64,000 nucleotides of DNA from a bacterium (lineage in GTDB: Bacteria > Bacillota > Clostridia > Oscillospirales > Oscillospiraceae). The translations under genes were made by a program, and so were the position numbers. The stretch is taken from assembly GCA_963661735.1 (NCBI GenBank), contig CAVLCF010000111.1, positions 8,063 to 72,062 on the forward strand, given 5' to 3'. Below the pieces are notes generated by a model. It did no database searches and was not told the DNA's origin. It saw nothing but the letters and a program-made list of their open reading frames with translations. Numbering within the stretch: the first letter of the stretch is position 1; each line of letters opens with the position of its first letter. Of this stretch, positions 1-28,724 are shown piece after piece.

Positions 1-1070
1 GCGGCACAGCTGCCGCAAAGCTGAATTTTTCTCTGGCACGGGCTCTGGACCTTTTCGGCCGCCTCAATAGCATTGTCCAGAATGTTTCCGAAAATCGTAC
101 ATACGTCAAAGCTCTCCATATAGGAGCAGGGGCGGAAGTCCAGTTCCACTGTCATTTCTATTCCATGGACAGCGGCAATGCGGATTTTTTCAGCCAGGAG
201 ACCATCCAGCAGTTCATTTCCCGTTCTGCGCAGAACCTCCAGCTTTTTCAGACTGTCCAGCATCTGTTCAATATATTCGTCCACCTTCGCAGCGTCACTC
301 TCGATACTGCGGAGCGCAAGCAGGTGGTTTTTCATATCATGGTGCAGCCGCCGGACATCCGTTTCGGCTTCCTGCCGTTCCCGCAGGGCCTCGTAGCGGT
401 ATTGCCCGGCCAAGTCCAGCATACGCTCCTTGCCGCGGCTCTCGCTGACCGCCATGTACCGCTCGAACAGGAGCATTCCACCGATAACAAAGCTCTGCAT
501 TAAAATGATATACACCGTCAGCTCCGGCTGGGCACGGCCCAGGGCGCTTGCTTTCGTGACGGCGAGCATCTGCACCAGGTAGGCCTCGCAGAAAATTACA
601 TAACCGAGCAGCAGAAAACGCTCTTTTTCAATTTTTTGAATTCGATTCATCGGAAGCAATCTGGTAAGGACAGTGATAACCAGGAAATAGGTCCCGTGCT
701 CCAGCGTCGCACCCAAAACGCGATCCCAGAGCGCGCTTCCGGTAAGAGAAATTTCTCCGCGTGTAATGCCGCTGAGCCATGGGGTAGCAAAAATCGTTGA
801 GCAGAGCGTAAAGCCGATCCACGTCAGGCAGGAAAAATACAGGCATCTTTTCCAATCAAGGCCCTTATAAAAATAAAGGAACACCGCGTTCGGGAGCAGC
901 CGAAGAACCGTGAACAGCCATACAGGCTCCAATTGATTGAACACAAGATAAAACGGAAGCCGCAGTCCAATCAGGACCAGGCAGGAAAATACTATGCTGC
1001 GCAATGACTGCCGCTTTTCTGGCTGAATCGGCGCGTAGGCCCAGAGCAATGTCAGTGTATTAAACAACAT
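1..1070 (-). CDS. Sensor histidine kinase, AgrC/LytS-like GHKL type (TCS-1); 3' end cut by window edge
   Basis: Minus-strand frame from ATG at 1070 reads MLFNTLTLLWAYAPIQPEKRQS. It has a polytopic N-terminus, an H-box RRLHHDMKNHLLALRS and an N-box CTIFGNILDNAIEAAEK. It is absent from the ORF track because it runs off the window. Paralog of 17859-19181 and 25452-26759. Confidence 0.8.
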   Translation of the reverse strand, partial: MLFNTLTLLWAYAPIQPEKRQSLRSIVFSCLVLIGLRLPFYLVFNQLEPVWLFTVLRLLPNAVFLYFYKGLDWKRCLYFSCLTWIGFTLCSTIFATPWLSGITRGEISLTGSALWDRVLGATLEHGTYFLVITVLTRLLPMNRIQKIEKERFLLLGYVIFCEAYLVQMLAVTKASALGRAQPELTVYIILMQSFVIGGMLLFERYMAVSESRGKERMLDLAGQYRYEALRERQEAETDVRRLHHDMKNHLLALRSIESDAAKVDEYIEQMLDSLKKLEVLRRTGNELLDGLLAEKIRIAAVHGIEMTVELDFRPCSYMESFDVCTIFGNILDNAIEAAEKVQSPCQRKIQLCGSCA

Positions 1071-1081
1071 CAATCGGTAAA

Positions 1082-1801
1082 TCACTGCCAATGGCTCCTT
1101 TCCGCAAACGATGAGAAGGCCAAGAGGAATTCCCTTCGCCGGTGCTTGCTCAGCGGAACCGCCTCCCCGTTGCTCATAATCAGCTGATCCTGTAAAACCC
1201 GCCGGATATGACGCAGATTCACCAGATAGCTTTTGTGGCAGCGGAAAAAGTCCTGGCCTGTCAGCTGCTGCTCCACAGTGTTCAGACGTATATAATAATT
1301 CTTTTTGTAGTCCGCCATAACAACCCGGGTCGTGTGATCCAGAACATCGAAATACAGAATATCCCTGCTGTTCAGATAATCCATGTCCACGCCGTCTTTC
1401 AGAACGATCCGCTTTCCCTTTTGCCGGTAAATCTGGTTTACGGCTTCTGTAACGCAGGCAGAAAAGCGCTCAAAGGAAATGGGCTTCGGAAGAAACGACC
1501 AGGGATGTACCTCGTAACCATCCAGGGCATATTGCACCATGGTCGTGAGAAAAATCAGGCACAGCGATTGATTTTTCCGCCGGATCTGTTTTGCGGCGTC
1601 CAGACCGGACAGCTCTCCCATGCGGATATCCAGAATCAGAAGGTCCGCCTTTTCCAGCTCCCGGCTGCGCAGGAGCTCCTCCGCGGAGCCGCAGCAGCTG
1701 ACGTGCAGGTCTCCCTCAGAAAAGGCAGGCATTCTCCCAAGATATGCTTTTACCTGCTCCAGCACAGCCTGTTCATCGTCACACAGTATAACATTCAGCA
1801 C
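1082..1801 (-). CDS. LytTR-family response regulator (TCS-1)
   Basis: GTG at 1801, 5 nt after GGAGGGG. Receiver domain VLNVILCDDEQ...LLILDIRMGELSG. C-terminal LytTR domain FFRCHKSYLVNL...PLSKHRRREF. Only the last 239 codons of the 722-aa run-on track ORF are used. Confidence 0.88.
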   Translation of the reverse strand: MLNVILCDDEQAVLEQVKAYLGRMPAFSEGDLHVSCCGSAEELLRSRELEKADLLILDIRMGELSGLDAAKQIRRKNQSLCLIFLTTMVQYALDGYEVHPWSFLPKPISFERFSACVTEAVNQIYRQKGKRIVLKDGVDMDYLNSRDILYFDVLDHTTRVVMADYKKNYYIRLNTVEQQLTGQDFFRCHKSYLVNLRHIRRVLQDQLIMSNGEAVPLSKHRRREFLLAFSSFAERSHWQ

Positions 1802-1840
1802 AATTTTCCCCTCCAGAAGGATTTTCTTTTGTATGATCTG

Positions 1841-1871
1841 CCATTGACGGTGCAAAGCCTCCCACTCACGG
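1841..1871 (+). promoter_or_regulatory. Candidate LytTR-regulator binding site: two 10-bp direct repeats with 21-bp period
   Basis: CCATTGACGG (1841-1850) and CCACTCACGG (1862-1871), 8 nt upstream of a -35 element. The 9-10 bp repeats with an ~12 bp spacer match the AgrA/LytTR box geometry. Confidence 0.55.
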
Positions 1872-1879
1872 CGATGGTC

Positions 1880-1908
1880 TTGAACCGTCAAAAAATGTCG
1901 GATATAAT
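1880..1908 (+). promoter_or_regulatory. Sigma-70-type promoter for hydrolase-membrane paralog 1
   Basis: TTGAAC (1880-1885), 17-nt spacer, TATAAT (1903-1908), about 50 nt upstream of ATG 1958. Confidence 0.55.
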
Positions 1909-1957: not shown

Positions 1958-3790
1958 ATGAAGAAATCTTCTCCAACCGCATCCGCAGAACGCTCCGGCG
2001 CAGTGCGCTTCTTCGCCATTGCGCTTGCCGTGCTTCTGCTCAGCTCCATTTTCATCTGGGGCTTCCAGACCTCTTGGGGTGATGTGCGCATTGAGCGGCT
2101 GCATCTGAATTCCCCTGACGGTACAAAGCTCAGCACACTGCTCTATATTCCCAAAAACGCGACGGCAGAGAATCCTGCTCCCTGCGCCGTCATTTATCAC
2201 GGCCGCTCCAATCAGGGCCACTCCAATGACACCTGGTCCATGGAGCTTGCCCGCAGAGGCTATGTAGTCCTCAGCCCGGACCTGACCGGCGGCGGCGAAT
2301 CCTACACCTTTGACGGAGGCTATTTCACGGATGGCCGCACCATGCAGGGTGTTGCGACACTGGATTACGCGCTGTCCCTGGACATTGTTGATCCGGAGCA
2401 GGTGAACCTCATCGGCTATTCCCTTGGCACAAACACCGCAACCCAGGTTGCCGCCGCGGAACCCGAAAAGGTCCACTCCGTCCTGAACGTTATGGGTCCC
2501 TTTATGATCCTGCGTTCCATGGATACCATCCACAAGCTGCTGACAGAGGATAATATCAGCTTTGGCATTCTGAAAGCCGACTGCGATCAGTATGACTACA
2601 GCTTTATCGGAACACCCGAGGAATGCCGTGTCAAGGTATCCGCCGCTCTGCAAATGGACACCGTGCTGACCCCGGATACAGATATTCCTTTCGGTGAAAC
2701 CAGCATCCTTCGCTACATCGAGGTATTCGGTACCATGCACCAGACGGGCAATATCAGCGCCGATACCATCAACGCCATCCTGTCCTTTGAGGATTCTCAG
2801 AACACTGCACCCATCTCTTTGGCAAACAGCGACCAGCAGTGGCTGCCTCAGCAGCTGTTCAGCGGCATCGCCTGCGTTACCATGATGTTTGCTCTGGCTG
2901 CTTTCCTGAATCTGCTGATGCAGACCCCTTTCTTCGGCTCCATCGCCTTTGCCCGTGTGCCTCGCAAGGAACTGCGCGGCGCAAAAGCCTGGCTCACAGA
3001 TATTCTTTTCACCTTCGTGATTCCCGCTGCTCTGTTCATCCCCGTATCCACATGGGGTATGAAGTGGTTTGCGAAAAGCAAAATCCTGACCTCTACAAAT
3101 CTGAACGGCATCATGCTCTGGCTGCTGATCGCCATGGGACTGATTGGCATTATCCGCATGATCGTAAAGGCGAACAAACGAAAGAAGAATGGCGAAACCA
3201 TCGCCCTCTCCGACTATTGCATCGCAGCAGCAGGAGACAACAGGTTCCATTGGAGCTATGTTGGCAAGGCATTCCTGATGGGCCTGATCGTTGTCTGCTT
3301 CTTTGGCCTCTGGATGACCGCTATGGAGGGCTTCCTGGGCATTGACTATCAGGTGTGGAACCTGTCCACTTATCTGAAGCCCAGCCCCGAGCGTATCGTA
3401 AAGTCCATTCCCTACATGATTATTATACTGATCGTTATGGGTCTTGGCAATATCAATCAGCGCGTGCTACCCTCTACCGGCAATGAACGCAAGGATCTGT
3501 GGATTGCCGTAGCTGTCAACACAGTTCTCACCGCCTCCGCCCTGTTTGTCCTGCTGGTCGTCCAGTACGGCGGAAGCCTGATGCTGGGAACCGGCCAGGT
3601 GCCCTTTGCCGGAGACGGCGGCAGCACCGGTGCTCTGGACTTCGCCTTTGGTTATTGCTACATGATGGGCGGAACCACCGGCGTTGTTACCTACCTGTAT
3701 CGGAAGCACGGTAATGTGCTTGCCGGCGTTATTCCCTGTGCCATGTTTGCCGGACTGTTCACTCTGGTTGGCTTTACACTGGTGCGCTGA
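1958..3790 (+). CDS. Signal-anchored alpha/beta-hydrolase fused to a polytopic membrane domain (paralog 1 of 5); uncharacterised family
   Basis: ATG 1958 in frame with track ORF 1208..3790. N-terminal TM segment FFAIALAVLLLSSIFIW. YIPKNATAENPAP..HG block, nucleophile elbow GYSLG, candidate His in GTMHQ. C-terminal ~300 aa is multi-TM with NQRVLPSTGNERKD and YLYRKHGN motifs. Confidence 0.8.
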   Translation: MKKSSPTASAERSGAVRFFAIALAVLLLSSIFIWGFQTSWGDVRIERLHLNSPDGTKLSTLLYIPKNATAENPAPCAVIYHGRSNQGHSNDTWSMELARRGYVVLSPDLTGGGESYTFDGGYFTDGRTMQGVATLDYALSLDIVDPEQVNLIGYSLGTNTATQVAAAEPEKVHSVLNVMGPFMILRSMDTIHKLLTEDNISFGILKADCDQYDYSFIGTPEECRVKVSAALQMDTVLTPDTDIPFGETSILRYIEVFGTMHQTGNISADTINAILSFEDSQNTAPISLANSDQQWLPQQLFSGIACVTMMFALAAFLNLLMQTPFFGSIAFARVPRKELRGAKAWLTDILFTFVIPAALFIPVSTWGMKWFAKSKILTSTNLNGIMLWLLIAMGLIGIIRMIVKANKRKKNGETIALSDYCIAAAGDNRFHWSYVGKAFLMGLIVVCFFGLWMTAMEGFLGIDYQVWNLSTYLKPSPERIVKSIPYMIIILIVMGLGNINQRVLPSTGNERKDLWIAVAVNTVLTASALFVLLVVQYGGSLMLGTGQVPFAGDGGSTGALDFAFGYCYMMGGTTGVVTYLYRKHGNVLAGVIPCAMFAGLFTLVGFTLVR

Positions 3791-3834: not shown

Positions 3835-3880
3835 CGGATAGATGTACACGCTCAGGCAAGTACATCTATCCGATTTCTTT
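3835..3880. terminator. Bidirectional rho-independent terminator between convergent genes
   Basis: 13-bp perfect arms CGGATAGATGTAC / GTACATCTATCCG (3835-3847, 3860-3872) followed by a TTTCTTT run. Confidence 0.7.
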
Positions 3881-4319
3881 ATTTATGACCAGCCACCCCG
3901 TTCGGGCCAATCGGCACAAAGGGCATTTCCACCGCAAACATACTGAAAAGCCCCTCGCAGAGCAGCTTCCCATCCTCACTTCGGATCTCCACCCGTACGC
4001 TGCATACCGTCCGGCCGGCGTGCAGGACGGTTCCCTCGGCGTACAGCGTTCCGTCGGACACATTTCCCAGGAACTGGAGGCTGGCGTTCTGGGTAACATA
4101 CTTTCTTCCATCCGTCAGCGCCGCAAGTCCCGCGGTGGTGTCCGCCATGCTCATGTAAAACCCACCGTGGACAATGCCATAATTGTTCCGCAGCTGGGGA
4201 CGGATAGGGGCGCTGACCTGGACACGCCCCAGCTCTGCCCGGAGAATGGACAGCCGATTGTCCTTCATAAAGGGTGTATTGTCTACCCGCTCATGGAGCC
4301 TGCGCTCGATCTCCGTCAT
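3879..4319 (-). CDS. PaaI-family hotdog-fold acyl-CoA thioesterase
   Basis: 146 aa with NNYGIVHGGFYMSMADTTAG and a hotdog-like C-terminal half. Its start overlaps the upstream stop by 4 nt (4316-4319). Confidence 0.8.
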   Translation of the reverse strand: MTEIERRLHERVDNTPFMKDNRLSILRAELGRVQVSAPIRPQLRNNYGIVHGGFYMSMADTTAGLAALTDGRKYVTQNASLQFLGNVSDGTLYAEGTVLHAGRTVCSVRVEIRSEDGKLLCEGLFSMFAVEMPFVPIGPNGVAGHK

Positions 4320-5617
4320 TTTTCCGCACTCCCTTCCAGTCTTTGCTCCAAACCGGAGCGCAGCAGCTTTGCCGCGCCCTCAACACCGCAGACCGATGTA
4401 TTCAGCGTCATTGCATAGTGGCAGGCCAGGCCCCAGGGCTCCCCCGTAAAGTGGCGGCAGTAGTTCTGACGGAAGCTGTCCTCCCGGCGAAGCCGCAGCA
4501 GGGCTTCCCGCTGGGACTCCTTCTTTTCATCCCGGATCCTCTCTGCCCGGAAAGTCTCGTCAGCGGTGACAAATACATGGAAGCAGTTTGCCCTGTTGCG
4601 CAGAATATAGCTTGCCAGCCGCCCCACAATGACGCAGCTTCCCGCGGCGGCATAGTCCTCGATCACCTTGCTCTGGGCGTAAAAAATCGCATCCTGCCTG
4701 GAAATGCTCTGACTGGACGCAAAGCTGGCCTGATAGAGCCCATACAGCAGCGGGCTGGAAAGCCGCTCCTCCTGCTGCCGGATGACTTCCTCGGAGAATC
4801 CGGTTTTTTCCGCCGTCTCCGCGATCAGCGCATAGTCATAGAACGGGATCCCCAGCTCTTTGGCAATACGCTGCCCGATCTCGTGGCCGCCGCTTCCAAG
4901 CTCTCGCTCTATGGTAATTACCAGCGGCGTGCCGGATCGCGCAGCCTTCCGGTCTGCCGTCTGCTCCGTTTCAAGCAGCTTATCCAGGAAATGGAATTTT
5001 CTGCTGTAGAGCTGCACAAACAGGCCCACCAGCACTGCCGCAAGAACCGTCCCCTCCCGGATACCCTCCAATCTGCCGAAGCCGATCAGGGACACGCAGC
5101 AGCTGACGATTACAAAGCCGCAGTCCAGGCCGATCTTCACCTTGCCGAATTCCAGGTGAAATACCTGAGCAAAGGCGCTGATGGCTCCTTCCGTGGCCAT
5201 GACGATCAAACCGGCCTTTACTTCCAGGTACAGGCCGAAGCCCATAACGGCGCAGCTTACAACGCACAGCGCCAGCCGCAGAGGATAAGCCGTCACCTGC
5301 ATGGCCGCTACCAGACCGTTGGTAAAGTCCGTGAAAAAGCCAAAGCACATCACAACGGCCAACTGAAGCAGTTGAATAGGATGGTAGTTCTTTCGCAGCA
5401 GCAAAATCTGGACAAGGACAAACACGATGTTGACAATGATCGTAAACGTACCCATAGATATGGGAAAAAGTCTGCACAGCAAATATGGCAGGCTTGCCGA
5501 CGGGGAAACGCCAAGGCCCGACTTTGTGGAAAGGGCCACACCCATGGCGATGAAAAACAGGCCGCTCAACAAAACCAACAGCCGGAGAACAAAACGCTTC
5601 AGTAAGTGTTTTTTCAC
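4316..5617 (-). CDS. Fusion protein: YczE/DUF6198-like membrane domain plus cytidylate-kinase-like P-loop domain
   Basis: GTG 5617 follows AGGAGG. The N-terminal ~210 aa is polytopic (LLVLLSGLFFIAMGVALSTKSGLGVSP). The C-terminal half has ITIERELGSGGHEIGQRIAKELGIPFYD and VIVGR, typical of the cytidylate-kinase-like family. Confidence 0.7.
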   Translation of the reverse strand: MKKHLLKRFVLRLLVLLSGLFFIAMGVALSTKSGLGVSPSASLPYLLCRLFPISMGTFTIIVNIVFVLVQILLLRKNYHPIQLLQLAVVMCFGFFTDFTNGLVAAMQVTAYPLRLALCVVSCAVMGFGLYLEVKAGLIVMATEGAISAFAQVFHLEFGKVKIGLDCGFVIVSCCVSLIGFGRLEGIREGTVLAAVLVGLFVQLYSRKFHFLDKLLETEQTADRKAARSGTPLVITIERELGSGGHEIGQRIAKELGIPFYDYALIAETAEKTGFSEEVIRQQEERLSSPLLYGLYQASFASSQSISRQDAIFYAQSKVIEDYAAAGSCVIVGRLASYILRNRANCFHVFVTADETFRAERIRDEKKESQREALLRLRREDSFRQNYCRHFTGEPWGLACHYAMTLNTSVCGVEGAAKLLRSGLEQRLEGSAEK

Positions 5618-5938
5618 GGTTCCTACCTCCTGAAAGAAAATCAAAACAGGCCCGAAGCAGTGTGGGAAACAAATCCAGAACTGCATCGAGCCCGTTTTCT
5701 TATGGAATTTGCAGTTCTTCCCATGCCCTCAAAAGTGCCCGGGATGTCCGCCCGTAGTTGCACCGGGCGGATATCCCCAGGCGCCGCGCCATACCTGCCG
5801 CAGGAATCAAAGAAAGGAAAAAAGAAATTACGGCAGAAAACCCATAGCGCAGTACTGAGAAGGAGGATTCTCATAGGAACAGAAGGGAACGGCTGCCTGA
5901 CCGATTCTCTTCTCTGGGTTTTCAAAGTCAATTGCGGC

Positions 5939-7186
5939 TCAGCCGATGCGCTTTACGTCGCAGGCTTCTCCCGCCTCGAACATAGCGTCAATTTCAGCCG
6001 CCGTATAACCGGCATCTGCCAGGACCGCTCTGGTGTCCTCGCCCAGGAAGTGGGCACGCTCATAAGGCGGCAGATCGGTTTCGGTGAAGATAACAGGCGT
6101 GCGGACCATGGTGCGGCTGTTGCCGCTGGGGAAATCGACCTTTGCCAGAATGTCGCTGGCCCAAGCCTGCTTGTCTTCCAGCACCTCATTCCAGGTCTGC
6201 GCCAGCGCTACAGGCATATCCGCCTTGCCCATGGCCTCGACCCAATATGCCATAGGCTTGGAGCCGATCTCAGAGACCATAATGTCGTAGAATTCATCCA
6301 GGTGATTCTGCAGATTGGTCTGGGGGTAGAATTTTTCATTATCCACCAGGTCCGGACGTCCCAGGACCTCCCCCACGAACTTGTTGTAGCAGGCGTCGTA
6401 ACGGGGCATGGCAAACATCAGCCAGCGGCCGTCGCTGGTCTTATGGACGACCTGAAGCTGATTTGCAAGCTGCTTGCGGCTGATGGGGTACTGGGTACCG
6501 GGGTCGCCGTACTGATTGGCGGACAGATACAGCGACACATCCCATACGCCGCTGTGGAACAGGCTGACTGTTACCTGGTCTCCCTGGCCGGTGGTCTTTG
6601 CGCGCAGCAGCGCCGCCAGGATGCCGCTGGCCAGATTCATGCCCACCTGGTGATCACCAAAGCCGGCAATAGGGGTCATGGGGATGGCATTCACATCATA
6701 CATGGTGCCCATAACGCCTGCCCGGGCAAAATAGGCGGTGAAGTCAAAGCCGGGCAGATCCTTATCCGGCCCCTTCTCGCCGTAGCCGCTGACAAAGCCA
6801 TAGACCAGCGCGGGATACTTCGCGTGGAGGGTCCCATAATCCAGCCCCATACGCTTCAGCGGAGATTGCCGGTTGTTGGTCACGAACACATCTGCCTTTG
6901 CCAGCAGCCGGTCCATGGCTTCCTTGCCCTTCTCCGTCTTCAGATTCAGCGTCACGGTCTTCTTGCCGGTATTCTCCAGGGTAAAGCTGGTATCCTCCTT
7001 GTCGCCGAAGGGGCGGCCCTCATTTACGGCCGTATAGCGCAGCGCGTCGCCGTTGGGGGCCTCTACCTTAATGACCTCGGCACCCAGGTCCGCCAGGTAC
7101 CGCGTGCAGCAGGGACCGGCAATAAAGGTGGCCAGCTCCACAACGTGAATGCCCTCCAGGGGGCGTTTGATCGTACTCATAAACAC
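5939..7186 (-). CDS. Family III (CaiB/BaiF) CoA-transferase, HadA/FldA-like
   Basis: LEGIHVVELATFIAGPCCTRYLADLGAEVIKVE N-terminus. 415 aa. Last gene of the dehydratase cluster. Confidence 0.85.
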   Translation of the reverse strand: MFMSTIKRPLEGIHVVELATFIAGPCCTRYLADLGAEVIKVEAPNGDALRYTAVNEGRPFGDKEDTSFTLENTGKKTVTLNLKTEKGKEAMDRLLAKADVFVTNNRQSPLKRMGLDYGTLHAKYPALVYGFVSGYGEKGPDKDLPGFDFTAYFARAGVMGTMYDVNAIPMTPIAGFGDHQVGMNLASGILAALLRAKTTGQGDQVTVSLFHSGVWDVSLYLSANQYGDPGTQYPISRKQLANQLQVVHKTSDGRWLMFAMPRYDACYNKFVGEVLGRPDLVDNEKFYPQTNLQNHLDEFYDIMVSEIGSKPMAYWVEAMGKADMPVALAQTWNEVLEDKQAWASDILAKVDFPSGNSRTMVRTPVIFTETDLPPYERAHFLGEDTRAVLADAGYTAAEIDAMFEAGEACDVKRIG

Positions 7187-7201
7187 AGCCTCTCTTTCAA
7201 A

Positions 7202-8317: not shown

Positions 8318-8318
8318 A

Positions 8319-9554: not shown

Positions 9555-9583
9555 ATTCAAACCTCCATAACAAAACTACAGTC

Positions 9584-10357: not shown

Positions 10358-10380
10358 AAGCTATCTCTCCGTGTTTTGTC

Positions 10381-19181: not shown

Positions 19182-19353
19182 ATACTGCACCTTATACTCC
19201 TCAATGATCTGCTTCTTTCTCTCAAATCCTCTCCATTTTCTTTTTTTCTTTCTTGCAAAATATGCAAATTTCAGTATAATAGATAAGTAATTAAAAGCTA
19301 AAAAGGAAATGGCCCGGATGCCCCAGGGAATCCGGGCCATGGAGATGAAAATT

Positions 19354-19944: not shown

Positions 19945-19972
19945 ACGTATCCAATCCTTCATTTTTCGCTAA

Positions 19973-20016
19973 AAGCCTCTTATTCCGGATTCAACTCCGG
20001 AGTGAGAGGCTTTTGG
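19973..20016 (+). terminator. Rho-independent terminator after the TetR gene
   Basis: AAGCCTCT ... AGAGGCTT stem enclosing an inner TCCGGA hairpin, followed by TTTT. Confidence 0.6.
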
Positions 20017-20101
20017 TATTATCACCAAATTGATAAGCTCTGTTTTGGTATTTTTGCGATATTGCATTTCCCTTGTTACTGTGATATTATTCAAATATCA
20101 A

Positions 20102-20123
20102 ATTACGTAATGCATTACGTAAT
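20102..20123. promoter_or_regulatory. 22-bp perfect palindrome, candidate TetR operator upstream of the MBL-MFS genes
   Basis: ATTACGTAATGCATTACGTAAT is two copies of the self-complementary 10-mer ATTACGTAAT separated by GC. It lies 26 nt upstream of ATG 20149. Confidence 0.55.
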
Positions 20124-20148
20124 CAATAATGGATAGGAGAAATAAAAA

Positions 20149-20964: not shown

Positions 20965-20992
20965 ACCGGACTTTCAAAAGAGGTAGAGAACT

Positions 20993-22237
20993 ATGGCAAA
21001 AGAAAAATTCTCCTGGAAGGGTTATCTCGCCGGACTGAAATCCCTGCTGGCACGCAACCCTATTCTGATTATCATTATTTATTCTCTGAACCAGTACGGC
21101 AACAATATGAAAAACGGCTTCCGTACTCTGGTCGCCACCAAAATGCTTGGCCTCAGTCCTACGGTTGTTGGGTTTGCGCTGTCCGTTTTTCTGATCACAG
21201 GTCTGGTTTTCCGCACCCCCGCCGGTGCCATCACGGACACGCTGCGCTCCAAACTGAAGCCCATTATCGTTGTCTCTTTTGTTCTGAAAGGTCTTATCTG
21301 GATCGGCTTCAATTTCATTACCAATACGGTCGGCTATTATGTTCTGTTCTTCCTGGACGGTGTGATCTGGTCCTTTACAGGCACGATGCTCCCCGCCCTG
21401 ATGGCTATTTCCATTGACCGCCGGGCCATGGGCAGCGGCTACGCACTGATGATGGGCATCTGCAATATCGTGTCCGCTTCTGCCCGTTCCGCAGGCATCT
21501 CCCTGTTCAATGAGAAGGGGCTGATGACTGCCACTCTGGTGGCCGCCGCAACCGGTATTCTGACCGCTCTGGTCGCCTGCTGTCTGGACACCAAAAAGGT
21601 GGCCGGTACGCCCGCCCCCGGTGCCGGTGCTCCCAAGCCGAAGAAAAAGGGCATCCTGGCCGGGATCAGCGTATCCATGATTCCATTCTGCATCGTCGCG
21701 GCAATGCCCATCGTCCTGTTCAACGCCGAAAGCAACTTCTCCCAGATGTATTTCAATGAGCTGGGCTTTGATTTCCTGACCCCCACCACCATTGGCGGAA
21801 CTATTTATGGCTTCCTGAGCATTGCCATCGGCGTACTGTGCGACATTATGAATCCCGCGATTCTGATCACCATCGGACTGCTGGGTCAGGTTGTCGCCCC
21901 CATTATGTGGGCTGACAGCGCAAGCCCCGCCCTGATGAGTGCCGGCCTGATTATCTACTACTCCACCCGCTATTACGGCACAGCTTTCCGTGTTCTGGGT
22001 ATGAAAGCCGTCAGCCGCAGCGAGCAGGGGGCCATGTCCGCAACCATGCTGCTGTTCAACGATATTTTTTCCGTGGCCTGCACATCGATTATCGGCGTTG
22101 TCGTAACAGCCATTGGTTACGAAAAGATGTTCCTGAGTCTGGCCGTCTGGTGCGGCATCTCCACTGTCGGTTTCGTTATCCTGAATAATACCTTCCTGAA
22201 AAAGCTCAACGCCCAGCGTGCGGCAGAAACAGAATAA
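20993..22237 (+). CDS. MFS-type transporter
   Basis: 414 aa, about 12 hydrophobic segments, with a central charged loop PKPKKKG. Confidence 0.7.
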   Translation: MAKEKFSWKGYLAGLKSLLARNPILIIIIYSLNQYGNNMKNGFRTLVATKMLGLSPTVVGFALSVFLITGLVFRTPAGAITDTLRSKLKPIIVVSFVLKGLIWIGFNFITNTVGYYVLFFLDGVIWSFTGTMLPALMAISIDRRAMGSGYALMMGICNIVSASARSAGISLFNEKGLMTATLVAAATGILTALVACCLDTKKVAGTPAPGAGAPKPKKKGILAGISVSMIPFCIVAAMPIVLFNAESNFSQMYFNELGFDFLTPTTIGGTIYGFLSIAIGVLCDIMNPAILITIGLLGQVVAPIMWADSASPALMSAGLIIYYSTRYYGTAFRVLGMKAVSRSEQGAMSATMLLFNDIFSVACTSIIGVVVTAIGYEKMFLSLAVWCGISTVGFVILNNTFLKKLNAQRAAETE

Positions 22238-22261
22238 CGCATTTCTCTGCTTGCCAAAACA

Positions 22262-22305
22262 CCGCCCGATTCCACTGGAATCGGGCGGTATTTATCGTTT
22301 TTCAA
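22262..22305 (+). terminator. Rho-independent terminator after the MFS gene
   Basis: CCGCCCGATTCC / GGAATCGGGCGG stem followed by TATTTATCGTTTTT. Confidence 0.75.
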
Positions 22306-22745: not shown

Positions 22746-24539
22746 ATGAACGAACGATCCTCCGTAAAAAAACATGCTGTCAGATTCTTTCTGTTTGCTT
22801 TGGCCGCCCTTCTGGTATGTTCCATTCTGAACTGGGGCGTTGTATCCAGCTGGGGCAGCGTAAAAGTAACCCGTCTTACCATTATCGGGGATGACGGCCG
22901 GCAGTACAGCGCATTATCCTACATTCCCAAAACCGCTACAAATGAAACCCCCGCGCCCGCTCTGCTCACCATTCACGGCGGCTCTTCCAATGCGAGAAAC
23001 AACGAGTCCTGGAGCATGGAATTTGCCCGACGCGGCTACGTTGTCATCGCAGTTGATAACTTTGGCGGCGGAGACAGCGAATACGTATCCGCCTACGGCC
23101 CCAATGCCGTTCCCGAAATGTTCTATGAACTTCTCCTGAGCATGGATATTGTCGATAAGGATCAGATTATCACCAACGGCCACAGCTGGGGCAACGACGC
23201 CGCCTATTCTCTTGGTCTCAAGTACAACGCGCGCGCAATTCTGATCAGTTCCGGCAATGGTTCTACCACCGGAGGCGAATTTACCGGCAACATGCTGCAG
23301 GTTTTCGGCGGCGTTGAAAACGTAGACACCGTAGAGAACAACACCGCAAACGCAGTCGCCGCCTTCAGCACAAGCTTTCCTGAGCTGACCGTCGATAACA
23401 TTGAAATCGGCAAAATCTATGGCAGCTTTGAAGAGGGCAATGCCAAGCAGCTGATAATAAGCCCTAAGCAGGTTCACGAAGGCGCAATGGTCCATACAGA
23501 CACCACAGCCGCTCTGCTGGATTTCGCCCAACAGGCAACTACAGCCCCCAATTATATCGATGCCAACAATCAGGTTTGGTATTGGAAAGACGCAGCCGGT
23601 CAGCTTGGTATCATCGCTTTCGTTGTCTTTCTGCTCAGTTTCGCAAATCTGCTGATGACCTGTGTTCCCTTCTTCTCTGCCATTGTTCAGCCTCTGCCCC
23701 GTAATATCGGTCTGAGACACACTGGCATGGCAATCAGCATCATTGCAGGTCTGGCATTCCCCGTAATTTCCTTATACACCGGCGGCTTGGGCCTAAAGAA
23801 GCTCATTGGCATTGCAGGCAAAAGCACTCTGAACCAGATTTTCTCCATGCGCGCGGGCAACTTCCCCTTCTTCGCTTTTGTGGGTATTGCGCTGCTTGGC
23901 ATCATCATGTTTTTCGTGTACCATTTCACCGACGGCAGAAAACACCACGCCAAACTATGCGATTATGGCCTTACCAGCGCCGCCAGAGACAAACTCGACT
24001 GGTCTTTGATTGGACGGAGCGCCCTTTTGGCTGCCGTCGTCATTATGGTCGGCTGGAACTATATCAACGCGCAAACCCATATTCTGGGAACTGACTTCTA
24101 CTGCCTGTACTGGGGCGTTAAGGACATCGCCAGCGTGAAATTTGTTCACTATATTCCCTATATCATTGTCTACTGTCTGCTGTTCATCCCCGCCTCCCTG
24201 GGACTGAACGTGGAGCGCCGACTGCCATCTACAGGCAAAGACAGCCTGGACTTCTTCCTGCAAACTGTCTTTAACATGTTTATGGCAAGCGCAGCCATCA
24301 CCGCAGTCGTTCTCATTCAGAACGCCATGCAGCATGCCATGGTTGGCGGCGGCAGTGCCGCTCTTGCCGGCTTCGGCATTGAAATTGTACGTATCTGGGG
24401 AATGCCTGTTGGAATGCTGGCAGCCGGTGCAGGCCAGACCTACATGTACCGGAAGTCCGGCAGTGTTTACCCCGGAGCTTTCCTGATGGGTACCTATTGT
24501 GCCCTGACCTGTGTTCTGTACGCTCAGACAAGAATCTAA
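22746..24539 (+). CDS. Signal-anchored alpha/beta-hydrolase plus polytopic membrane domain (paralog 4 of 5)
   Basis: FFLFALAALLVCSIL anchor, YIPKTATNETPAP..IHGGSSNARN, elbow GHSWG, His in QVHEG, LNVERRLPSTGKDSLD, IWGMPVGM, YMYRKSGS. Confidence 0.82.
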   Translation: MNERSSVKKHAVRFFLFALAALLVCSILNWGVVSSWGSVKVTRLTIIGDDGRQYSALSYIPKTATNETPAPALLTIHGGSSNARNNESWSMEFARRGYVVIAVDNFGGGDSEYVSAYGPNAVPEMFYELLLSMDIVDKDQIITNGHSWGNDAAYSLGLKYNARAILISSGNGSTTGGEFTGNMLQVFGGVENVDTVENNTANAVAAFSTSFPELTVDNIEIGKIYGSFEEGNAKQLIISPKQVHEGAMVHTDTTAALLDFAQQATTAPNYIDANNQVWYWKDAAGQLGIIAFVVFLLSFANLLMTCVPFFSAIVQPLPRNIGLRHTGMAISIIAGLAFPVISLYTGGLGLKKLIGIAGKSTLNQIFSMRAGNFPFFAFVGIALLGIIMFFVYHFTDGRKHHAKLCDYGLTSAARDKLDWSLIGRSALLAAVVIMVGWNYINAQTHILGTDFYCLYWGVKDIASVKFVHYIPYIIVYCLLFIPASLGLNVERRLPSTGKDSLDFFLQTVFNMFMASAAITAVVLIQNAMQHAMVGGGSAALAGFGIEIVRIWGMPVGMLAAGAGQTYMYRKSGSVYPGAFLMGTYCALTCVLYAQTRI

Positions 24540-24664
24540 CCAATATACCCGACTGTCTCCGCAAGGCAGTCGGGTCTTCGGTTCCGGCACACAATATTGC
24601 CGGAGCTTTTTTCTCGCTGTTATTGACCTTTGTATATTTGCTTCAAAACCTCCGCCTCAGCATA

Positions 24665-24714
24665 TTGATTTTTACAGCAGCATTATGCTATAATGGCAGA
24701 AGCTAGTTAACTAA
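24665..24714 (+). promoter_or_regulatory. Promoter of TCS-3 with a downstream CTAGTTAACTAA palindrome
   Basis: TTGATT (24665-24670), 18 nt, TATAAT (24689-24694), then CTAGTTAACTAA at 24703-24714. Confidence 0.5.
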
Positions 24715-24741: not shown

Positions 24742-25455
24742 ATGGTCAAAAAAATAGCCGTCTGCGATGACAGCGCTTTAGCGCTGCGGCAAACCGCCGG
24801 GTATTTTGAACAGCTCCAAAAGGAGCTGCCTTTTGAACTCTGCCCCTCCTACTTTTCCTCCGGCGAAGAGGTGCTTGCCGGGCTGGCGGAGGATACGGAC
24901 CTGCTGCTGTTGGATATTGCCATGGAGGGCATGAACGGCATTGAATGCGCCAAGGCCCTGCGGGCCAGAGGATCGAAATTTCCCATTGTGTTCATTACCA
25001 GCATGACGGAATATGCCATAGCAGGCTATGCGGTCCACGCCTTTGGCTTTCTTCCGAAGCCCGTCACCTATTCGGACTTCGCCGCCATCATAAGAGAGGC
25101 GTTGGCCGCGTCTGAAAAAAAGCCAAAAAAGCTGCTGGTCAAAACCGCAGAGGGTGTCAGCGCCATTGATCCTCAGGAGCTGATTTACGCCGAGGTTTAC
25201 CAGCATGAAACCAGCTTTCATCTGCTGACCGGACGCATTCAGGGCAATGTACAGCTTGGCTCCATCGAACCTCTGCTTCCCGCTGAAGGTTTTTTCCGCT
25301 GTCACAAAAGCTATCTTGTTTCCCTGGAGCAAATCGCATCCATCGGGCGGGACGCGCTGACAATGCGTGATGGCAGCAGCATTCCCTTGAGCAAACACCG
25401 CCGGAAAGCTTTTCTCGATGCCTACAGCCGTTTTGCGGGGGTGCGGTTTGAATGA
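24742..25455 (+). CDS. LytTR-family response regulator (TCS-3)
   Basis: ATG 24742 follows AGGAGG. KKIAVCDDS...LLLLDIAMEGMNG receiver domain. LytTR domain FFRCHKSYLVSL...PLSKHRRKAF. Confidence 0.88.
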   Translation: MVKKIAVCDDSALALRQTAGYFEQLQKELPFELCPSYFSSGEEVLAGLAEDTDLLLLDIAMEGMNGIECAKALRARGSKFPIVFITSMTEYAIAGYAVHAFGFLPKPVTYSDFAAIIREALAASEKKPKKLLVKTAEGVSAIDPQELIYAEVYQHETSFHLLTGRIQGNVQLGSIEPLLPAEGFFRCHKSYLVSLEQIASIGRDALTMRDGSSIPLSKHRRKAFLDAYSRFAGVRFE

Positions 25456-26759
25456 ATATGATCGAATGCGCAAACTTTCTCATGGATCTGCTCTTCACCC
25501 TGCTGTATTTCCGCCGGATGGACAATGCCAGTGTTCCCCCATGGCGCAGAGCGCTGGGGTTTATCTGCCTGCTGTCCACAGCAATCCTCTATCCCTCCGG
25601 CGTCTTCCCCTTTCTCTCCGGTATGGTCCAGCGCTTTTTGCTGCGGGCCGCGCTGACGCTTTTGTATGTCGTCATTGTATTCCCCATCAGCTTTTCGGCT
25701 TCCGCCTATGCCGTTGGGTATTGGTGTACCATCCATCTGCTGGTGCAGAGCCTTTTCTTCGCTCCGTTCACCTACACCCTGTTTACCGGAAAGGCAATCT
25801 TCACCGGGCAGCCCAATCTAGATACGCTTCTGTGTATCCTGCTGACTTTTCTGGTGAAGGCGATTTGCTTTCTCCCCTTCTCCTGGCTCACGCCTCTGGT
25901 TCATGTGAGTCCCGTCCGCTTTTCGGACCTGATCCCGATTTGCCTGATCGCTGCCGTAGCTCTATACGGGCGGGAACTGGCGATTCCCCTGTCGGGAGCC
26001 GAGCGCACCACCGTCTCCGAGGTCAGCAATTATTATCTGACCCTCCAGGCCGCGCTGATGGTACTTCTGGGCTATGTGGAGTATTCCCGCCGGGATCGCC
26101 GGGAAAGCGCCATGACACAGCTCAAGCAGCAGGAAGCCGAGGCGCTTCTGAAGCAGGTCCAAAACCAGGCACTCAATGCCCAGGAGGTTTCCGCCCTCCG
26201 GCACGATCTGAAAAATCATTTGCTGAGCATTCAGTTTCTGCTGTCCAAAGGAAACACAGCCGAGATCGAGCAGTATATCCAAGCCCTTCTGGAGAAAACA
26301 GTCCCCTCGCGGCGGAACTACAATACCGGTAACGAGCTTACGGACGGACTGCTGAGCATGAAGCTGGAGGACTGCCAGAGCCGCGGAACAGAAGTTACCG
26401 TAAACCTGGATATGCGCTGCGCCGACTTTCTGGACAACCTTGATCTCTGTGTCCTCTTCGGCAACATTCTCGACAACGCCCTGGAAGCCTGCGCCGAGCT
26501 GCCGCCGGAGCGCAAGGCCTACATCCGCATAACCGGCGGACAAAGCGCGAATATGTTCACGCTTCGTGTGGAAAACAGCTGCAAAAGGAACTCCGTCCTG
26601 ATCAACGGCCTGCCCGTCACCGCCAAGGCAAATGCCCAGCTTCACGGATTCGGCCTGAAAAACGTGAAAGCCGTACTGGAAAAGTACGGCGGGAGTCTTC
26701 ACGTCTTGCAGGAGGAAAGCGGTGTTTTTGTTTTGACGGCTCTGATTCCGATTCCATAA
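25452..26759 (+). CDS. Sensor histidine kinase, AgrC/LytS-like GHKL type (TCS-3)
   Basis: ATGA overlap with the regulator stop. Polytopic N-terminus, H-box VSALRHDLKNHL, N-box VLFGNILDNALEAC, G-box HGFGLKNV. Confidence 0.85.
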   Translation: MNMIECANFLMDLLFTLLYFRRMDNASVPPWRRALGFICLLSTAILYPSGVFPFLSGMVQRFLLRAALTLLYVVIVFPISFSASAYAVGYWCTIHLLVQSLFFAPFTYTLFTGKAIFTGQPNLDTLLCILLTFLVKAICFLPFSWLTPLVHVSPVRFSDLIPICLIAAVALYGRELAIPLSGAERTTVSEVSNYYLTLQAALMVLLGYVEYSRRDRRESAMTQLKQQEAEALLKQVQNQALNAQEVSALRHDLKNHLLSIQFLLSKGNTAEIEQYIQALLEKTVPSRRNYNTGNELTDGLLSMKLEDCQSRGTEVTVNLDMRCADFLDNLDLCVLFGNILDNALEACAELPPERKAYIRITGGQSANMFTLRVENSCKRNSVLINGLPVTAKANAQLHGFGLKNVKAVLEKYGGSLHVLQEESGVFVLTALIPIP

Positions 26760-26764
26760 TCCAA

Positions 26765-26798
26765 CATCAGGGGGATGCCGATTGGCATCCCCCTGATG
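26765..26798. terminator. 15-bp perfect hairpin between convergent genes (probable terminator; no clear U-tract)
   Basis: CATCAGGGGGATGCC gatt GGCATCCCCCTGATG. Confidence 0.5.
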
Positions 26799-26813
26799 CG
26801 CCGTGTAAAGAAT

Positions 26814-28724
26814 TTACATAAATCTCAGCTGCCCGAACAGCACGCACATCAGCGCGGCCACAGTACCCATAAGGATGGCGGTGAGCCAGGTGTTGCCGGT
26901 TTTGCGGAACAGATAGGTGGAGCCGCCTACGCCAACGGTCATGCCTACGGGCATACCCCAGATGCGCTGGGTGTCAGCATTGAAGGTGAACAGCCACTGG
27001 TTGTCCTGTCCCACGGACTGCAAGTGCCACTTCACCGCGATGATCACGATGATCGTAAAGGTGGCCAGGACCACATTGACGAGTACCGCCAGAATATCAT
27101 CCAGGGTCTCCTTGCCGGTGGTGGGCAGGCGGCGCTCCACGTTCATACCCATGCCAGAGAGTACAAAGCAGGCGATCCAGATCACGATGTAGATCAGCAT
27201 ATGGGGAATCTTGAACAGAGGAATGCTCTTGAAGCCGAAGAACCAGGCATAGAAATCGGTACCGGTCAGCACCTCTTGGAGCTTGATGGTGCCGAATGCC
27301 ACAGCCAGGGTCATAAGGGCAACGGCCAGGGTCTTGAGGATCATCTCACCGGAGAGCTTCTCTGCGCCGTCAGGGGCAAGACCCAGCTCGCAGAGCTTCA
27401 TCTTCTGCTGCTTGCCGTCGGTGTACTTGAACAGCAGGAACGTCAGCAGGCCCAATAGGGACATACCAATTACGGTGTAGAACGCCACATTGGAGTATGT
27501 AAAATTGAAAATACCGTAGTTCATGGCATTCTTGTTCTTCGGCGTCAGCAAACCGAAAGCGCCGGTTTTCAGAACGATCCAGGGGAACAGAATCCCGCAG
27601 ACGGCGGAGACCGCGAAGCCGCCCTTGCGCAGGCCGATATTCCGGGGCATCGGCTGCCGAACAATGGAGAATCCGGGAATCAGATCGATCAGCGCCAGCG
27701 CCACCGCGCAGATGAAAGCACCGAAGCAGAGGATGCCGAACAGGCTGGTATAATCCTTGTACATCCAAACCTGGTCATTGCTGTCGATGTAGTTGGGCAC
27801 ATTGTCCACTGCCTCCTGGGCAAACCAGACCAGCTTGCCGATGGTCCCCTGGTTTACGAAAGCCGCCTCATGGATCCGCTCATGATCCAGCGTTGCGTAG
27901 TAAGCATTGCCCTCCTCAAAAGAGCCGTACAGGGTATCCAGCTGGAAGGTATCCAAGTCTTCAAAGCCCGGGCGGGTCCTGATGGATTCCAGATTGCTCT
28001 CGGCAAACTTTTCGGGTGTCGTCTCTACGTCGCCGGTAGCGGAGAGATAATTGCCCTCATAGGCATCCCAGTAGGGCTTGTAGTCATCGGGCAGCAGGGC
28101 CACCTGAGACGCGGACATGATCGCCCTCGCGTTGTACTTCGCGCCCAGAACCATTGCGGAGGTGCAGCCCATGGAGTGACCGGCCGAGATAATATTATTG
28201 CTGTCCACAAAGCCGCAGTCCAGCAGGTAATTGTAGTAGGTCTCGCCTACCTCGACCATACATCCGTTTCCGAACCCCCATTTGTCCAGGAACTGCTCGG
28301 AGTCACCGGAACCAAACTGGTCAACGGAGAGAACGACAAAGCCCCGGCGGGCAAACTCCACCGCCCAGGACTCATGGTTTCTGGCGTTACCCGCGTTGCC
28401 GTGGAAATTGATCACCGCGGGAGCCGGATTTTCGTTGGTAGCCGTCTTTGGAACGTAGAGCAGCGCGCTGAATTGGCAGCCATCCCGGCCCACCATCGTC
28501 ATACGGGTAATTTTCACATTGCCCCAGCCTGTAATGACCCCCCAGTTGAGCAGCGCCGCCAGAATCACCAGAATCAGCGTTACGGCAAAGAAACGCTTCA
28601 CGCCCTGAGTCCTTCTCTTCTTTCCCTCCGGAGTATAGAAGTTCTTGCGGAGCTTCTCGCTGAAGTCGTAGTCCTTTTTTCGCTCCTGCTCGTCAGCTCC
28701 CATGATCTGCTTGAAATTCGCCAT
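26814..28724 (-). CDS. Signal-anchored alpha/beta-hydrolase plus polytopic membrane domain (paralog 5 of 5)
   Basis: A ~45-aa charged N-terminal extension, then the anchor FFAVTLILVILAALL. YVPKTATNENPAP..FHGNAGNARN, elbow GHSMG, His in RIHEA, MNVERRLPTTGKETLD, IWGMPVGM, YLFRKTGN. Confidence 0.82.
   Translation of the reverse strand: MANFKQIMGADEQERKKDYDFSEKLRKNFYTPEGKKRRTQGVKRFFAVTLILVILAALLNWGVITGWGNVKITRMTMVGRDGCQFSALLYVPKTATNENPAPAVINFHGNAGNARNHESWAVEFARRGFVVLSVDQFGSGDSEQFLDKWGFGNGCMVEVGETYYNYLLDCGFVDSNNIISAGHSMGCTSAMVLGAKYNARAIMSASQVALLPDDYKPYWDAYEGNYLSATGDVETTPEKFAESNLESIRTRPGFEDLDTFQLDTLYGSFEEGNAYYATLDHERIHEAAFVNQGTIGKLVWFAQEAVDNVPNYIDSNDQVWMYKDYTSLFGILCFGAFICAVALALIDLIPGFSIVRQPMPRNIGLRKGGFAVSAVCGILFPWIVLKTGAFGLLTPKNKNAMNYGIFNFTYSNVAFYTVIGMSLLGLLTFLLFKYTDGKQQKMKLCELGLAPDGAEKLSGEMILKTLAVALMTLAVAFGTIKLQEVLTGTDFYAWFFGFKSIPLFKIPHMLIYIVIWIACFVLSGMGMNVERRLPTTGKETLDDILAVLVNVVLATFTIIVIIAVKWHLQSVGQDNQWLFTFNADTQRIWGMPVGMTVGVGGSTYLFRKTGNTWLTAILMGTVAALMCVLFGQLRFM

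Follow-up and report, generated by a model that had tools for sequence, protein, structure and literature searches.

Hydrolase-membrane fusion proteins linked to AgrCA-type sensor pairs and to 2-hydroxy-acid fermentation genes in a gut anaerobe of the Oscillospiraceae

A 64,000-nucleotide stretch of the genome of a bacterium of the Oscillospiraceae (assembly GCA_963661735.1, contig CAVLCF010000111.1, positions 8,063 to 72,062; hereafter the window) encodes five paralogous proteins, here called H1 to H5, that fuse a hydrolase predicted to face outward to a membrane domain of eight helices. It also encodes three AgrCA-type two-component systems, each comprising a histidine kinase (HK) and a LytTR response regulator (RR), and from the promoter sequences these pairs appear to switch on at least three of the H genes. 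The genomic context points to inducible ester hydrolysis feeding catabolism, or to detoxification, and not to quorum sensing or wall remodelling. Our favoured reading, which we put forward tentatively, is that the H modules are inducible sense-and-hydrolyse units for esters yielding fermentable organic acids. Neither the two-component systems nor the hydrolase fold is of a new kind. The obligate fusion, its place as the output of orphan AgrCA-type systems and its insertion in radical dehydratase operons are not described in the libraries and literature that we searched.

A serine hydrolase fused to a membrane domain of its own

A preliminary description of this DNA, made from the letters alone, had reported five paralogs of about 600 residues, and all five open reading frames (ORFs) are present:

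1958-3790, plus strand: H1, a hydrolase-membrane fusion, one of the five paralogs and the most divergent copy
13248-15056, minus strand: H2, which starts 21 nt 3' of H3
15078-16871, minus strand: H3, for which an identical 597-aa product is recorded in NCBI
22746-24539, plus strand: H4, its own transcription unit, with hairpins on both flanks
26814-28724, minus strand: H5, convergent with HK3

A hidden Markov model (HMM) built from these proteins and run against the 64-kb window returns exactly the same five matches and no sixth paralog, with E values (~1e-250 to 1e-289) that exclude chance likeness. Full-length identity among the copies is 24-46%. H3, H4 and H5 share 40-46% with one another, and H1 and H2 share 24-31% with every other copy (24-28% for H1 against the other four). 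Judged by this divergence, the five H genes are old paralogs. H2 is probably co-transcribed with H3 across the short gap between them. Motifs that had been taken as common to all five, NVERRLP(S/T)TG, IWGMPVGM and YRK(S/T)GN, prove to be exact only in H3 to H5; H2 keeps NVERRLPDTG and YRKSGN but not IWGMPVGM, and H1 carries the versions NINQRVLPSTG and YRKHGN.

Translated from the ATG at 1958, H1 has no exact counterpart in a 15-billion-protein collection that does contain H2 to H5; the deposited H1 call may use another start, or the copy may differ in the deposited assembly. The H1 open frame reaches back to 1208, antisense to RR1. Some H homologs in other genomes are split into at least two ORFs by frameshifts or stops (L010 4128-7815, L019 5980-7775, L020 5893-7884 and L039 6001-7738, L numbers being our handles for loci and contigs) and may be pseudogenes or errors of metagenome-assembled genomes.

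Each paralog has the layout originally proposed: a hydrophobic N-terminal signal-anchor helix (residues 2-33 in the model of H4), an alpha/beta-hydrolase domain and a polytopic C-terminal domain of ~320 residues with eight helices. Residues ~50-200 match generic hydrolase families of Pfam and NCBIfam only (Abhydrolase_1, Hydrolase_4, Peptidase_S9/S15, AXE1, DLH). The nucleophile elbow GxSxG reads GYSLG, GISQG, GHSIG, GHSWG and GHSMG in the five copies, and both the elbow serine and the conserved histidine noted earlier are invariant in an alignment of 57 homologs, where the full triad S147, D/E191 and H244 (H4 numbering) is found in 57/57. E92, R95, R96 and D104 are invariant as well.

An AlphaFold2 model of whole H4, computed from the same 57-homolog alignment, has a mean predicted local distance difference test score (pLDDT) of 93.6 and a predicted TM-score (pTM) of 0.93, the latter meaning that the hydrolase and membrane halves are predicted as a single rigid body. 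The model comprises the helix 2-33, an alpha/beta-hydrolase sandwich at 39-264, eight long helices at 278-590 and a beta-hairpin at 451-458; the triad residues follow beta5, beta7 (182-188) and beta8 (234-239), as in active hydrolases. Lysine and arginine number 16.6 on average in the N-terminus and the alternate, predicted cytoplasmic loops vs 4.5 in the other, predicted outer loops. This positive-inside bias places the hydrolase domain, the GTDFY hairpin and the RIWGMPVGM loop outside the membrane and the NVERRLPSTG and YRKTGN motifs at its cytoplasmic face. By sequence and model, H is thus predicted to be a catalytically intact serine hydrolase with an extracytoplasmic active site.

In profile searches the nearest solved relatives of the hydrolase are a MHETase (9pjb, 1.7e-20) and PET46 (8b4u, 6.6e-18), an archaeal enzyme resembling feruloyl esterases; the elbow aligns with GLSMGG of both structures, and the HG oxyanion motif with PET46 and MHETase. 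Foldseek matches the hydrolase model to esterases, feruloyl esterases and monoacylglycerol lipases, each with probability 1.0, and to S9 peptidases. These PET46-, feruloyl esterase-, MHETase- and TTL-type enzymes (8b4u, 9pjb, 7q4h, 2wtm), whose HG and G-x-S-x-G motifs align with those of H, are soluble and single-domain, unlike H. Their identity to it in structural alignments is 11-16%, and the lid is not conserved, so specificity is not transferable from them. Among the five paralogs the lid and beta7-beta8 region is 18% identical vs 43% for the catalytic core, a contrast which suggests that the copies act on differing substrates. Models of quorum-quenching lactonases and lasso-peptide isopeptidases match weakly, far below cutoff.

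The C-terminal ~320 residues match nothing in Pfam or NCBIfam. Modelled alone, the domain reaches a pLDDT of 89.7, and a profile search of PDB with it returns no match. Foldseek finds no PDB fold for the eight helices (best E 0.048, TM-score 0.15), bearing in mind that the program is weak on helical membrane proteins, and none in BFVD. No internal repeat is detected by hhalign (helices 2-5 against 6-9), and no histidine of the domain is conserved among the 57 homologs.

The statement that these proteins belong to no known family therefore stands: only generic hydrolase models match, in the N-terminal half, and the C-terminal half is without a PDB match in sequence or fold. The full-length architecture likewise maps to no described family when both halves are searched (Pfam, NCBIfam, PADLOC, PDB). 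The defence models of PADLOC give no match for H1-H5, HK3 or RR3, and a full-text literature search retrieved no paper describing the hydrolase-membrane fusion or an esterase within Had-type operons. Homologs are named in databases only as 'hypothetical protein', 'alpha/beta hydrolase' or 'pimeloyl-ACP methyl ester carboxylesterase'.

A profile search of 1.84 billion cluster representatives with the membrane domain yields 1048 proteins at E<=1e-3 and 226 at E<=1e-30, a family of ~1000 when counted as clusters at 50% identity. The fusion is essentially obligate, because nearly all of the 1048 are ~600 residues long with the domain at residues ~270-600, distant members also have an Abhydrolase in the N-terminal half, and the ~350-aa matches that might have been stand-alone membrane domains retain the hydrolase end HPW.HFS and are N-truncated gene calls. 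The family ranges over Oscillospiraceae, Lachnospiraceae, Erysipelotrichaceae and Coriobacteriia, with distant members in Bacilli and Dehalococcoidia.

AgrCA-type sensor pairs, their operators and their linkage to H genes

The three kinase-regulator pairs claimed for the window are borne out by Pfam (HATPase_c_5, Response_reg, LytTR) and by local HMMs:

<1-1070, minus strand: HK1, an AgrC-type (HPK10-like) histidine kinase whose C-terminus is cut by the window edge; local HK HMM E 3.9e-49
1082-1801, minus strand: RR1, a regulator of REC and LytTR domains with a GTG start; RR HMM E 4e-127
17146-17862, plus strand: RR2, with Pfam Response_reg and LytTR
17859-19181, plus strand: HK2, with Pfam HATPase_c_5 and the H-box HDIKNH
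24742-25455, plus strand: RR3, with Pfam Response_reg and LytTR
25452-26759, plus strand: HK3, a Pfam match, adjoining convergent H5

The kinases carry an HDxKNH H-box (HDMKNH in HK1, whose N-terminus is polytopic) and four to five hydrophobic segments in their first ~205 residues, and have no extracytoplasmic domain. The HATPase_c_5 matches have E values of 1e-22 and 4e-24, and the SpoOB-type helical domain SPOB_a matches weakly (25.1 and 22.2 bits vs a cutoff of 28.1). On these domain matches, the pairs can be taken as genuine AgrCA-type systems.

H1 and H3 are divergent from RR1 and RR2, respectively, and H5 is convergent with HK3, so that the statement that every H copy lies beside a pair is right for these three. 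H2 is near a pair only by way of H3, and H4, upstream of RR3, is separated from it by terminators and a distinct promoter. Neither the assigned ORFs nor the two ~500-nt gaps include an AgrB-like gene, in agreement with the earlier report that agrB and agrD are not visible; the gaps hold unconvincing small ORFs only, although a peptide of AgrD size could escape these tools. The AgrB domain (PF04647) is also missing from the called genes of L002, L004, L047 and L052, where small unannotated peptides could have been missed. Rfam at its gathering threshold gives no RNA element in window 1-32 kb.

Upstream of the H genes, the following sites were located:

1841-1870, plus strand: tandem LytTR-type boxes of H1, CCATTGACG-N12-CCACTCACG, ending 9 nt before a -35-like hexamer
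1880-1908, plus strand: promoter-like site of H1, TTGAAC-17-TATAAT, 3' of the boxes and 5' of the gene
16991-16962, minus strand: tandem LytTR-type boxes of H3, TCAGTTAGG-N12-CCAGATACG, read from the sequence and ending 9 nt before a -35-like hexamer
16952-16924, minus strand: promoter-like site of H3, TTGCTT-17-TACAAT, 5' of the gene
22261-22289: terminator-like hairpin before H4
24548-24607: terminator-like hairpin after H4
24665-24694: promoter-like site of RR3/HK3
28898-28869, minus strand: tandem LytTR-type boxes of H5, CCATTCACG-N12-CCATTCACG, a perfect repeat
28931-28970: hairpin downstream of an MFS gene and before the H5 boxes, read by eye and not in the terminator scan list

Such tandem 9-bp direct repeats match, as sequences, the architecture of LytTR operators. 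The H5 boxes are not at the canonical distance from the clearest promoter. Those of H3 are weaker than those of H1 and H5, their copies agreeing at 6/9 positions, which is why a stringent scan missed them. H4, with terminators on both sides, is predicted to be transcriptionally insulated. The half-sites of H1 and H5 are nearly the same (CCAYTSACG vs CCATTCACG) though they lie beside different pairs, so that cross-regulation by a single regulator is possible.

The preliminary description had proposed comparative genomics as a check on this linkage, and the linkage is conserved. A scan of species representatives, made with a closer subset of the 57-homolog alignment, gave 40 loci with ±6-kb flanks in Oscillospiraceae, Faecalibacterium, Pseudoflavonifractor, Intestinimonas, Lachnospiraceae, Blautia, Erysipelotrichaceae and Coriobacteriia; in 21/40 the H gene has an HK+LytTR pair no more than 6 kb away. 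The metagenome contigs L002, L004, L047 and L052 also place such a pair next to H, sometimes with two modules abreast. Boxes of the form YCNNTNNNG, spaced by 20-22 bp, recur 5' of H genes (for example CCAGTTGCG, CCATTCATG and CCACTTGGG), and tandem boxes occur in 10/23 upstream windows of H genes linked to a two-component system vs 1/15 of those without one, against a background of 0.023 per 360-nt window.

The linkage extends to subtypes. H5-type proteins occur with HK3/RR3-type systems in L004, L008, L016, L017, L022-L024, L033 and L034, with identities to the window of 84% for H, 57% for HK and 68% for RR in L008 and a similar pattern in L017 and L033; this co-occurrence makes H5 the apparent cognate partner of convergent HK3/RR3. 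H1-type proteins, too, are linked to two-component systems (L039, L047, L052). The H genes examined in the Coriobacteriia, which belong to another phylum, all stand divergent to the gene of a ~460-aa regulator of the LuxR (GerE) type that has multiple transmembrane (TM) helices. A sensor domain common to this LuxR membrane part and the AgrC-type kinases was considered and rejected (hhalign probability <1%).

Two HK-RR-H modules per contig stand among conjugation genes (PrgI, a TraG-like ATPase, CHAP) in L002/L003 and among IS21, IS110 and DDE transposases in L052/L053; with such neighbours, the cassette may be mobile. An H5-type protein at 74% identity to the window copy occurs in L017, labelled Bacteroidaceae, and an H3-type protein at 43% in L021, labelled Sphaerochaetaceae, where the module adjoins a type IV secretion system (T4SS) coupling protein. 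The presence of H modules in non-Firmicutes bins suggests horizontal transfer or mis-binning.

Fermentation context and the readings of H function

Most H loci with adequate flanks but no two-component system lie in or beside a 2-hydroxyacyl-CoA dehydratase cluster, an arrangement found in Oscillospiraceae and Ellagibacter. In L007, L013, L019 and L020 the order is activase-HgdA-HgdB-H-(family III CoA-transferase), with gaps of ~20-30 nt and a flanking GntR gene; in the Ellagibacter loci L029 and L030, H is followed by CoA-transferase-HgdA-HgdB. Both H3-type and H5-type proteins are found in dehydratase operons, and a GntR gene is next to H in seven loci (L007, L013, L014, L019, L020, L021, L042). 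Among the ORFs around H in L007, L013 and L019, whose flanks were only partly run through Pfam, no obvious permease or 2-hydroxy-acid dehydrogenase was seen. Other contexts are likewise those of organic-acid catabolism: POR with a CoA-transferase, a flavin reductase and an MFS protein, or malic enzyme with a CE2 esterase. As a rough estimate, less than one dehydratase co-location would be expected by chance in 40 loci (±6 kb being ~0.5% of a genome), and six were seen, four of them tight operons.

The same association recurs in the window itself, whose 3.9-40 kb region is, by gene content, a 2-hydroxy-acid fermentation island with H copies interleaved:

3879-4319, minus strand: PaaI/4HBT thioesterase (Pfam/NCBIfam)
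4316-5686, minus strand: DUF6198-cytidylate-kinase-like protein (PF13189), a fusion of a membrane domain and a kinase-like domain
5939-7186, minus strand: family III CoA-transferase (Pfam/NCBIfam)
7202-8317, minus strand: HadC-like subunit (Pfam/NCBIfam)
8319-9560, minus strand: HadB-like subunit, matching HadB of PDB 3o3m at 1e-122
9584-10357, minus strand: activase (Pfam/NCBIfam)
10561-12177, plus strand: acyl-CoA ligase (Pfam/NCBIfam)
12281-13009, plus strand: GntR/FadR-type regulator, NanR/LldR-like (NCBIfam)
28981-40042, minus strand: long operon 5' of H5 (Pfam/NCBIfam), an oxidative and electron-transfer branch

The genes at 3879-12177 form, by annotation, the reductive branch of a 2-hydroxy-acid pathway, and elsewhere H homologs lie within or beside the same set of genes. 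By equivalog model, the linked dehydratase comes closest to 2-hydroxyisocaproyl-CoA dehydratase, the HadB-like subunit scoring 496 bits on the NCBIfam model vs an equivalog cutoff of 750. The long operon encodes, by falling coordinate, an acyl-CoA dehydrogenase, EtfB, EtfA, an FAD-linked GlcD-type 2-hydroxy-acid dehydrogenase, a phosphotransacylase, a CbiA-like ATPase, the alpha, beta and gamma subunits of a 2-oxoacid:ferredoxin oxidoreductase, a butyrate kinase and a lactate-transporter-like (SfMCT-like) MFS protein; as a gene set it resembles an lct-type cluster, for the use of lactate or 2-hydroxy acids, with an oxidative branch attached.

Near H in L004 and L025, too, there are DUF6198 genes or homologs of the complete fusion. 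The interval 19309-22237, between the second sensor pair and H4, holds a TetR regulator, a metallo-beta-lactamase-fold protein, a homolog of which adjoins an H fragment in L046, and an MFS transporter. Beyond the island, 40338-64000 has a lower GC content (39-49% vs ~55% elsewhere) and looks like an integrative conjugative or mobilisable element. It carries two tandem tyrosine integrase-like genes at 40338-42926, of which Pfam confirms only the first (40338-41762), a DNA-methyltransferase-like ORF, a helicase, a T4SS coupling protein (48996-50933), a MobL relaxase with Sel1 repeats (56037-58760), a PAPS-reductase-domain protein (61582-62460) and two AAA_21 ATPases that may be defence genes.

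The preliminary description had read the sensor/regulator/membrane-enzyme module, repeated three times within 29 kb, as a dedicated signalling or envelope-remodelling system. The module is real and conserved; the proposed function is not favoured by the dehydratase operons, the LuxR pairing and the fermentation island. The architecture, the conserved triad, the charge-bias topology, the gene linkage and the upstream boxes are observed here; what induces the modules, what class of substrate they cleave, what the membrane domain does and how the product is passed on to metabolism are inferred. In the mechanism that we propose, H would be a membrane-integral, outward-facing serine esterase, its hydrolase exported by the signal anchor and seated rigidly on the eight-helix domain. 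The AgrC-type kinase would detect a hydrophobic or ester-type compound, or its product, within the membrane and phosphorylate its own LytTR regulator, which would bind the tandem 9-bp boxes beside the -35 element and induce the cognate H gene. The esterase would then cleave the compound at the cell surface, while the fused membrane domain may present membrane-partitioned substrate to the active site or take up the acid product. The neighbouring pathway, with its HadBC-like dehydratase and CoA-transferase and its dehydrogenase, Etf, oxidoreductase and kinase branch, would ferment one or more of the products, which would probably be 2-hydroxy acids or organic acids related to them. Five paralogs with hypervariable lids could handle different esters.

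Several observations weigh against this inducible ester hydrolysis for fermentation. The dehydratase linkage is limited to 6/40 loci plus the window. Many genomes conserve no more than HK-RR-H, with unrelated genes, insertion sequence (IS) elements or conjugation genes around it, and such a pattern is seen more typically in resistance or detoxification cassettes than in catabolic operons. No convincing tandem LytTR box is present upstream of H4. An uptake role for the membrane domain is conjectural, since the domain has no likeness to a transporter fold and no internal repeat.

The cassette-like pattern fits the main alternative, which we consider unlikely, namely that the modules sense and destroy membrane-active cyclic lactones or depsipeptides (2-hydroxy-acid ionophores) or foreign (thio)lactones of the autoinducing-peptide type. 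The kinase would sense the membrane-borne cyclic ester, the 8-TM domain would extract it and the esterase would linearise and inactivate it, the freed 2-hydroxy acids being fermentable. The self-contained HK-RR-H unit often stands among IS or conjugation genes, and a T4SS coupling protein is encoded close to H in L021; AgrC-type receptors natively bind cyclic (thio)lactone peptides, and with no AgrB or AgrD genes seen the signal would be exogenous. The rigid stacking of hydrolase on membrane domain in the model would suit a membrane-partitioned substrate, the linked dehydratase is nearest to one for a 2-hydroxy acid of the kind that depsipeptides contain, and the matches to quorum-quenching lactonases and lasso-peptide isopeptidases, weak as they are, point the same way. 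Five paralogs in one genome and catabolic operons with ~20-nt gaps nevertheless fit nutrition at least equally, among solved hydrolases aryl and polyester esterases, not peptide lactonases, come closest, PADLOC gives no matches, and there is no direct evidence of any toxin or signal. A bolder version, which we regard as still less likely, makes HK-RR-H an unrecognised, horizontally mobile 'sense-extract-cleave' system in which an orphan AgrC-type receptor senses an exogenous, membrane-partitioned cyclic ester and an 8-TM domain of distinct fold pulls this ester from the bilayer into the esterase, the freed 2-hydroxy acids being channelled to the radical dehydratase in some lineages. In that case detoxification or quorum quenching would serve nutrition as well.

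Envelope remodelling, in which the membrane domain would bind a lipid, lipoteichoic acid or glycolipid and the hydrolase would de- or transacylate it under envelope stress sensed by the kinase, is in our estimate quite improbable. Its polytopic design with an extracytoplasmic catalytic domain recalls LtaS, EptA and OatA-type enzymes, basic residues conserved on the cytoplasmic side could bind the head groups of lipids, and monoacylglycerol lipases are among the fold matches. Yet housekeeping enzymes do not usually come as five 25%-identical paralogs with hypervariable lids, they seldom lie inside 2-hydroxyacyl-CoA dehydratase operons or beside IS and conjugation genes, and the annotated ±6-kb flanks hold fermentation, regulator and mobile-element genes, the sole wall-related call being the CHAP protein of L002/L003. 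We likewise give little probability to H as a co-sensor of the kinase, by analogy with flux sensing in BceAB-BceS, with the membrane domain contacting the kinase and turnover reporting substrate load. The tight genetic coupling of H types with HK types, the kinase's lack of an extracytoplasmic domain, which might call for a partner in sensing extracellular substrates, and the position of the most conserved membrane-domain motifs at the cytoplasmic face, where they could contact the kinase, all speak for it; but the many members with no adjacent kinase (dehydratase operons, LuxR partners, distant members) mean that kinase partnership is not the core function of the membrane domain, and the LytTR boxes put H downstream of the two-component system, where a feedback role is compatible and not required. 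Barely credible, finally, is a non-canonical Agr-like quorum sensing in which H replaces AgrB and cyclises or processes a small precursor through an acyl-serine. The two-component system is AgrCA-type, alpha/beta-hydrolase thioesterases can macrocyclise peptides, and an 84-aa ORF lies between RR and H in the single locus L002. Against these points, neither the window nor the other loci show a conserved small ORF with the module, the hydrolase is predicted outside whereas AgrB acts at the inner face, and the members in dehydratase operons and LuxR pairs lack any two-component system.

Relation to known systems and significance

The sensor pairs share with AgrC/AgrA-type systems (HPK10 and LytTR; Agr, ComDE, BlpRH, PlnBCD) the polytopic kinase with its HDxKNH box and HATPase_c_5 domain, the REC+LytTR regulator and, by sequence pattern, target promoters with two 9-bp direct repeats ~21 bp apart beside the -35 element. 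They differ in that no AgrB, AgrD or other pheromone or export genes are seen with them, three paralogous pairs occupy 29 kb, and the partner is a hydrolase-membrane fusion in place of a pheromone operon, bacteriocin or toxin. The membrane-LuxR and enzyme modules of Coriobacteriia (Eggerthella-type; Ellagibacter, Eggerthellaceae, Coriobacteriaceae) similarly set a membrane sensor beside an inducible enzyme, with a sensor family that differs from the HK sensor; the enzymes known from Eggerthella-type LuxR modules are reductases, not esterases. The dehydratase genes correspond to Had/Fld/Lcd-type 2-hydroxyacyl-CoA dehydratase pathways in having a CoA-transferase, a HadB/C-like dehydratase and an activase, at scores below the equivalog cutoffs, and we know of no membrane esterase described inside such an operon.

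Among membrane proteins, OatA/OafA (AT3-SGNH), LtaS and EptA offer an analogy, since they too would stack an outside catalytic domain on a multi-helix membrane domain; unlike them, H has no AT3, SGNH or sulfatase Pfam match and no fold match, and its context is catabolic. CPBP/Abi (Rce1-like) membrane proteases, which confer immunity in LytTR-regulated bacteriocin loci and are marked by the motifs EExxxR, FxxxH and HxxxN, were rejected as relatives, there being no PF02517 match and no conserved histidine in the membrane domain. The predicted 'transmembrane lipases' Abhydrolase_9 (PF10081) with Abhydrolase_9_N (PF15420), and DUF687 (Lazniewski et al., 2011, as cited in PMC11878206), are another alpha/beta-hydrolase fused to a multi-helix membrane domain and likewise experimentally uncharacterised; their domain order is opposite, and the H domain has eight helices and motifs of its own. 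Identity with this group was rejected, the five paralogs having no Pfam match to PF10081, PF15420 or PF05095 at E<=1.

Orphan AgrCA-type pairs, lacking AgrBD, are common in gut Clostridia, and their roles are largely obscure. Here they come with a conserved adjacent output gene and operator boxes, and what such pairs sense is very likely not a peptide of the cell's own making but a small compound of hydrophobic or ester type. The membrane domain, a family of ~1000 clusters with no Pfam model or structural relative and a high-confidence predicted model, is a target for structural and functional work. Its repeated insertion in dehydratase operons suggests that extracellular ester cleavage is an unrecognised entry step to a fermentation route that yields health-relevant acids in gut and rumen communities. 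The modules of this gut anaerobe thus point to an unstudied way to sense and cleave ester compounds.

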